Source: Eledone cirrhosa (taxonomy: Eukaryota). From it: a stretch of 64,000 bases of DNA. Where the stretch lies: positions 29,202,001 through 29,266,000 of the forward strand of contig OZ024741.1 in assembly GCA_964016885.1 (NCBI GenBank), read 5' to 3'. The notes below the pieces were generated by a model. The model saw only the letters and a list, made by a program, of their open reading frames with translations. It did no database searches and had not been told where the DNA came from. Of this stretch, positions 25,607-26,876 are shown one piece after another (position 1 is the stretch's first letter; each line of letters starts with the position of its first letter). The translations under genes and the position numbers were made by a program.

Positions 25607-26876
25607 GAGAGACATAAAATAAGAAAGTTATAAAATTAACTTACTTACTAAAATTTCACTCCCAACTAATTAGTTTCTGAAAGGGAATAAACATACTTTC
25701 CGAAGAAGTGTACAGAGAAGCCTTTCGTCATCAGGGAAGTCTATTCTCAGCTAAGTTTCCAGGCAATACGTGGACACTGGGAACTTATACAAAATTAATT
25801 CAGTGGATGGAAAAAAGCAAAGCGTGGACTAAATTCCTAGCCATTGAGAAAATCACTGCCTACTGCGTCGGTGGCAAATTCAAAAGAATCAATCACGTAA
25901 CATCGAGGTCAATCAGTGGAAAGTGGTTTGTTAAGACGACAGCAGCCGGACTGTTACTATAGCAGCAGTTTTGGCCAATTTTGCTCGACAATTAATTTGG
26001 AGATAATTATAAAGAATTAGTATATCTAGTAACATATATATACACAGATGCATACTTATGCTAGCAAATATATAGGTTTTGTGTTAGTAACTTTGTGGTT
26101 CAATGCATGGGGTTGCAGAACAATAATATGAGAGACGTAAAATAAGAAAATTATAAAAATCAGAAACTAATTAGTTGGGAGTGAAATTTTAGTAAGTAAG
26201 TTAATTTTATAATTTTCTTATTTTACGTCTCTCATATTATTGTTCTGCAACCCCATGCATTGAACCACAAAGTTACTAAGACAAAACCTATATATTTGCT
26301 AGCATAAGTATGCATCTGTGTATATATATGTTACTAGATATACTAATTCTTTATAATTATCTCCAAATTATTTGTCGAGCAAAATTGGCCAAAACTGCTG
26401 CTATAGTAACAGTCCGGCTGCTGTCTTCTTAACAAACCACTTTCCACTGATTGACCTCGATGTCACGTGATTGATTCTTTTGAATTTGCCACCGACGCAG
26501 TAGGCAGTGATTTTTTCAATGGCTAGGAATTTAGTCCACGCTTTGCTTTTTTCCATCCACTAAATTATTTTTGTATAAGTTCCCAGTGTCCACGTATTGC
26601 CTGGAAACTTAGCTGAGAATAGACTTCCCTGATGACGAAAGGCTTCTCTGTACACTTTTTCGGAAAGTATGTTTATTCCCTTTCAGAAACTAATTAGTTG
26701 GGAGTGAAATTTTAGTAAGTAAGTTAATTTTATAATTTTCTTATTTTACGTCTCTCATATTATTGTTCTGCAACCCCAAGCATTGAACCACAAAGTTACT
26801 AAAACAAAACCTATATATTTGCTAGCATAAGTATGCATCTGTGTATATATATGTTACTAGATATACTAATTCTTTA
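25607..26876. mobile_element. Retrozyme-like fold-back family J, 523-bp monomer
   Basis: Minus arm 25607-26160 and plus arm 26161-26876 each show a 523-bp direct period (25607/26130; 26161/26684) and carry one full HHR. Confidence 0.85.
26624..26704 (+). ncRNA. Type I hammerhead (family J)
   Basis: cttcc CTGATGA cgaaagg...cctttca GAAA ctaattag TT gggag; mirror copy at 25659-25739 (-). Confidence 0.85.

Follow-up and report, generated by a model that had tools for sequence, protein, structure and literature searches.

A hammerhead-fold repeat of 523 nt in the genome of Eledone cirrhosa and its likely copying by Penelope-like enzymes

The locus at positions 25603-26878 of the window, which is the whole 64,000-nt stretch of Eledone cirrhosa DNA analysed here (contig OZ024741.1, positions 29,202,001 to 29,266,000), quite probably belongs to a non-coding repeat family with a hammerhead fold, was inserted as two arms, and was copied by enzymes of Hydra-clade Penelope-like elements. 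The two fixed 3' ends, one for each arm, are the known tail signature of Penelope elements and suggest a Penelope-type element that is non-autonomous and belongs with the non-LTR retrozymes. In kind the 523-nt element is ordinary, and it is an unusually clean example of a Penelope-type non-autonomous element. Through its insertion signature, and not through co-occurrence, the family links a unit of retrozyme type with Penelope enzymes, and it allows the rule of one end site per arm to be quantified (41/43 inverted pairs). The origin of tandem and inverted Penelope copies and the role of their hammerhead are named as open questions in earlier work (PMC8557442; PMC11167929), and a 523-nt substrate with defined start sites suits a direct comparison of circular with linear templates.

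Architecture of the locus and the predicted hammerhead

The sequence and TRF delineate two head-to-head arms of one 523-nt unit, flanked by (TA)n runs on both outer ends. Phases are numbered from window position 26160 (phase 1). The features are:

25269-25606, no strand: (TA)n target microsatellite, left side (TRF and sequence)
25603-26158, minus strand: inverted arm, 556 nt, 1.06 units (period and arm alignment)
25658-25740, minus strand: complete type I hammerhead fold of the minus arm, core CTGATGA at 25734
26158-26160, no strand: head-to-head junction of two 5'-truncated arms, 1 unmatched base (sequence)
26160-26878, plus strand: direct arm, 719 nt, 1.37 units (period and arm alignment)
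26160-26182, plus strand: hammerhead 3' half with GAAA and palindromic stem III, predicted cut after 26176 (lag-523 alignment)
26177-26699, plus strand: unit from cut site to cut site, 523 nt, 35% GC, the predicted monomer or circle
26623-26705, plus strand: complete type I hammerhead fold of the plus arm (CTGATGA at 26629; covariation)
26623-26628 and 26700-26705, plus strand: stem I, 6 bp
26629-26635, plus strand: CUGAUGA core, followed by an extra C
26637-26642 and 26679-26684, plus strand: stem II, 6 bp with an inner hairpin, followed by an extra A
26686-26689, plus strand: GAAA, followed by palindromic stem III
26761-26878, plus strand: 118-nt tail from end site A to end site B, with conserved hairpins at about 26765-26788 and 26831-26848
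26875-26943, no strand: (TA)n target microsatellite, right side (TRF)

At lag 523, 190 of 194 positions are identical (next best lag, 0.41), and the minus arm is 98% identical to the plus arm (546/556). A sequence-only reading of the window had described a non-coding 523-bp monomer in arms of about 1.05 and 1.4 units; the period, the lack of a long frame and, within rounding, both arm sizes are confirmed. It had also assigned one intact hammerhead to each unit. Each arm indeed holds one complete motif, while the first unit of the plus arm has the 3' half only. The CUGAUGA core, the 6-bp stem II and the palindromic stem III are all present as it described them. The minus arm is truncated at phase 46 on its 5' side. 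Its 3' end is fixed site A, which falls at phase 78 of the following unit, and its final 4 nt are common to the arm and the TA run. The plus arm runs from phase 1, three nucleotides (TCA) before GAAA and not two as previously read, to fixed site B at phase 196. The two fixed 3' ends lie 61 and 179 nt beyond the predicted cut.

Stem III is the palindrome ACTAATTAGT, and the cut is predicted after GUU at 26699, i.e. at phase 17. Stem II has an additional base on either side, a C after A9 and an A before G12; the extra A recurs in nearly all hammerhead matches of a wider survey. The extra A and the GUU site are non-standard for the predicted hammerhead. An Rfam search gave 0 matches at the gathering threshold, and the local fold by itself is ordinary (z 0.42), so that support for a ribozyme rests on covariation. 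The predicted most stable fold (-13.8 kcal/mol) differs from the active one. In 18 aligned sequences that represent different subfamilies, pairing reaches 90% over stems I and II and the hairpin of loop II. Changes on both sides of a pair occupy 43 cells, against 14 in shuffled sets (0/500) and 7 or fewer in slid controls; the kinship of the sequences inflates the comparison with shuffles, the structure was drawn by hand from the same sequences, and the search pattern had already prescribed the core and stem III. At one position of stem II the pair occurs in four forms (UA, AU, CG and GC). The tail hairpins, in 15 sequences, are 98% paired with 12 both-side changes against 2.3, and the 118 nt between sites A and B hold two conserved hairpins, one of them with compensatory changes. 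Judged by these patterns, the stems of the predicted hammerhead and the tail hairpins are under selection for RNA structure.

In six frames of the doubled unit the longest stop-free stretches are short and show no similarity to the two Penelope proteins of the window. An ORF for reverse transcriptase and GIY-YIG endonuclease was absent from the unit, its flanks and the sampled copies, so the element is not autonomous. A conserved splice-donor-like motif, GTAAGT(AAGT), lies at 26191-26200, about 15 nt past the cut site, with an equivalent in all subfamilies, and AG stands directly ahead of stem I in most of them. Introns of Penelope elements are reported to sit near the hammerhead (PMC4209133).

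The family, its insertion ends and candidate helpers

The exact hammerhead pattern has 9,146 matches in the 3.0-Gb genome (control, 0), of which the first 100 were listed and 30 retrieved, and a query with the 523-nt unit gave 2,716 candidates, 40 of them scored. Six insertions were found in 400 kb not selected for the family, half of that DNA lying beside the window; as a very rough extrapolation, this would put the copy number in the tens of thousands. The family is spread across many contigs. At a 90% identity threshold, 30 distinct units sort into five clusters (minimum identity 69%). Units of the family are 511-571 nt long; a 556-nt subfamily is colinear with the window unit across its full length at 70% identity. 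The family is also present in two contig runs of one sample, of unrecorded kind, with a loose TA end at site A.

Insertion ends were surveyed with two patterns that did not require full length. The 96 loci, including that of the window and possibly a few duplicated segments, gave 162 arms. Because the top-30 set of the unit query favours full-length matches, it was excluded from these counts; one of its loci (L024) re-entered through the second pattern. The 3' ends of 145 of the 162 arms fall at two fixed sites 118 nt apart and 17 elsewhere: 82 arms end at site A (phase 74-82) and 63 at site B (phase 191-198), with TA adjoining 140/145 of these ends. Apart from the pairs that combine A with B, one inverted pair is AA and one BB. 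The 5' ends scatter as ordinary truncation points. Arms are 0.07 to 4.9 units long, the two arms of a pair being independent in length, and 30 of 53 arm junctions overlap by 1-9 nt. Sites A and B are common to divergent subfamilies and to 6/6 insertions in the unselected 400 kb. The differing phases of the two arms had been taken as the mark of a circle, and mapping of start and end phases over all copies had been suggested. The mapping bears out variable 5' phases, which are plain truncation, while the 3' phases are fixed family-wide, ruling out random circular permutation of both ends.

At several loci (L005, L146, L156, L050-L052, L131 and L143) a single (TA)n run has received separate insertions from different subfamilies, so these microsatellites are repeated landing sites. 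Target-site duplications are unreadable within TA repeats.

The window itself holds two candidate helpers:

about 174-3345, plus strand: Penelope-like family 1, ORF-bearing
about 37066-42495: Penelope-like family 2, ORF-bearing

Each gave more than 70,000 first-look candidates, which are not copy numbers and may overlap between the two sets. These families are young, with intact frames and head-to-tail arrays of 3,531 bp (L086-L089; sampled L061-L090 and L209-L228). A 784-aa frame of one copy (L087) carries RWR (RWK-like), DKT, CxCX5C, CxxC and CxH motifs and a C-terminal endonuclease; these Hydra-clade motifs were read by eye against the description in PMC8557442. A Pfam search of the helper protein gave no match. 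Both families have a hammerhead-like motif with a U3-A8 core variant and two 3' ends in (TA)n, 80 or 159 nt apart as against 118 nt in the 523-nt element, and their inverted copies pair A with B in 8/9 and 3/3 cases (11/12 in total). Hydra-like fragments occurred in 13/40 unselected 10-kb stretches, and the clade thus looks very abundant in the genome. Similarity between the unit and the 5' region of one helper falls short of significance (a score as high came from 77 of 1000 shuffles), so the helper is inferred from the insertion signature only.

Hydra-clade Penelope-like elements target (TA)n and carry a tail at one end only (PMC8557442). In vitro, a Penelope protein nicks both target strands, extends each of them and initiates within the RNA at two sites that flank the tail (PMC11167929). 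The sequence evidence makes it likely that mobilisation is of Penelope type and begins at two fixed sites. The reverse transcriptase-endonuclease of Hydra-clade elements would nick both strands of a (TA)n run, and two cDNAs would be primed at sites A and B within the RNA, probably both on a single molecule. The truncated cDNAs would then join head to head by microhomology; alternatively, the loss of one cDNA would leave a single arm. A ligated circle as template would permit copies longer than one unit and would fix a new mutation in all units together.

Circular and linear templates, and other origins

The predicted cut site is spanned at least once by 128/145 arms, a count inflated by one sample that was selected upstream of the first cut site, and at least twice by 36/145. 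Arms that cross it point to a template other than a simple cut monomer, one that had either escaped cleavage or been re-ligated. Diagnostic subfamily sites agree in 1799/1864 within-arm and 1160/1201 cross-arm comparisons, after six compound or long-array loci were dropped from 87. Private variants, defined as absent from the other loci of a small sample, are common to both arms in 5 cases against 0.19 expected. This agreement is compatible with a single RNA composed of identical units, such as a circle would provide, and gene conversion is possible as well. In an indecisive comparison, units were closer to each other within an insertion than to the nearest other insertion in 15/59 cases, with 7 ties and 37 worse. 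A circular template for Penelope tandems was already proposed in 2014 (PMC4209133). Judged on sequence, we would give a ribozyme-cut, ligated circle about an even chance of having been the template.

We lean slightly against the same Penelope-type mobilisation from a linear read-through transcript of a tandem locus, without a circle. The hammerhead would then be rarely used or would set some 5' ends only, and unequal crossing-over or template switching would restore multi-unit masters. Unprocessed linear RNA suffices for internal initiation, and ribozyme mutants inserted normally in the one in vitro Penelope system (PMC11167929); both speak for a linear template, as do the existence of arrays of about 17 units in which variants are shared in a higher-order pattern and an excess of 5' ends near the second hammerhead. 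The 5' ends near second and later hammerheads are about 2.5-fold enriched (10 against 4.0 expected, p 0.007, in an interval picked post hoc), which fits some linear cut templates or stalling. At the cut site itself the later crossings give a weak excess (3 against 0.66 expected), and at the first crossing a pile-up was sought and none found, with 0 ends at phases 15-21 and 10 against 9.3 expected at phases 1-40. In Xenopus, 8/9 retrozyme dimers failed to cleave (10.64898/2026.07.22.740005). Against a linear template, there are at least five subfamily clusters; the units within one insertion agree at diagnostic sites; no difference specific to one unit turns up more often than 3 times in 23-33; stems I and II covary; and 27/38 arms that reach the second hammerhead continue past it.

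A broader form of the circular reading is that a long-lived, protein-free lineage of RNA circles, numbering tens of thousands of copies, parasitises Hydra-clade Penelope enzymes without common sequence, through the shape of the tail hairpins, a two-armed insertion representing two reverse transcriptases that started 118 nt apart on one circular RNA. We hold this tentatively and would sooner doubt it than endorse it; if it were true, the family would be the smallest natural substrate on which to test the origin of Penelope tandems and inversions.

It is improbable that the copies are partial-tandem pseudo-LTR fragments of an unsampled autonomous Penelope-like element. The end signatures do equal those of autonomous elements, and the hammerhead survey covers the first 100 of the 9,146 matches with 30 retrieved. 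However, all 47 head-to-tail spacings (480-620 nt filter, duplicates included) are 511-571 nt, arms of up to 4.9 units are without an ORF, and upstream flanks, when clustered, have only the unit itself in common, save one unrelated pair. Fixed ends together with extension of other copies into a Penelope-like ORF had been named by the sequence-only reading as the mark of an ordinary tandem pseudo-LTR: the ends are fixed on the 3' side, and extension into an ORF or a shared foreign flank is absent from the sampled copies. No parent sharing DNA with the unit was found in the two helper families searched by protein, nor with a profile run over 400 kb of unselected DNA and 20 stretches that carry Penelope elements. 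A short-stem-II pattern gave 223 matches (control, 5), and those listed are nearly all chance or deletion variants of the 523-nt family.

A DNA-level repeat (satellite, MITE or fold-back element) with an incidental hammerhead-like motif, suggested by the inverted repeat structure and by the DNA-level expansion in one long array, is very improbable given independent arm lengths, differing fixed ends, copies on many contigs and covarying stems.

Relation to known elements and other repeats

Metazoan non-LTR retrozymes are described with monomers of 170-400 nt and a GC criterion of <45% (PMC7229834). A 2026 preprint gives consensus lengths of 51-972 bp and proposes that retrozymes derive from Penelope elements and are non-autonomous (10.64898/2026.07.22.740005). 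Larger size than known metazoan retrozymes, as claimed previously, thus holds against the first range and not against the second. Like these retrozymes, the 523-nt element is a non-coding head-to-tail unit with one type I hammerhead and low GC (35%), its length falls inside 51-972 bp, and it occurs as dispersed short copies with few long arrays alongside Penelope-like elements. It differs in being mostly shorter than 1.5 units, in its two fixed 3' ends and in its frequent inverted arms, features undescribed for retrozymes in the sections consulted, and it is without a sequence link to a parent pseudo-LTR in the families sampled. With one complete hammerhead per arm the window locus lacks the two consecutive complete motifs by which 10.64898/2026.07.22.740005 recognises active copies; other copies of the family hold two. 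By its sequence characters the family would class as a non-LTR retrozyme.

With Hydra-clade Penelope-like elements, as described in PMC8557442, the element shares the (TA)n target, 5' truncation, partial tandems, an inverted 5'-truncated arm, a tail at one end and a hammerhead near the 3' end. It differs in having no ORF and a tail of 118 nt as against the 30-40 bp described there. It would appear to work like a miniature Hydra-clade element and not as an autonomous member. The minimal Penelope-type hammerheads of PMC4209133 likewise have an extra base after A9, G10.1-C11.1 and a palindromic stem III, whereas the extra A between 11.1 and G12 (18/18 sequences), the covarying loop-II hairpin and the GUU cleavage triplet set the 523-nt element apart. 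In the Poseidon element PAc of the green anole, two 3' ends downstream of the hammerhead similarly bound a stem-loop tail and targets are AT-rich; PAc is autonomous, belongs to another clade and has adjacent start sites, whereas those of the 523-nt element are 118 nt apart and used one per arm (PMC11167929).

In the literature surveyed (titles and abstract starts, mostly outside subscription papers) the 523-nt family is undescribed, and supplements of the retrozyme preprint may list comparable families. At about 94.666-94.674 Mb (G000:C1; L158 and L208) lies an array of about 17 units, accompanied by an inverted arm that ends at site A. The units of the array have variants in common in an approximately 3-unit higher-order pattern, which points to DNA-level expansion and the birth of a satellite from the element. 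Further families of hammerhead-like repeats, in which the palindromic stem III differs in sequence, were seen at L102, L269, L265, L293 and other loci. In the window, a 555-aa frame at 30892-32559 (plus strand) matches RVT_1 (E 2e-30) and encodes a LINE-type reverse transcriptase unrelated to the 523-nt element. A further type I hammerhead-like motif at about 22560-22625 (minus strand) adjoins inverted repeats at 22691-24541, and this motif with its separate inverted-arm structure probably represents a different Penelope-type family.
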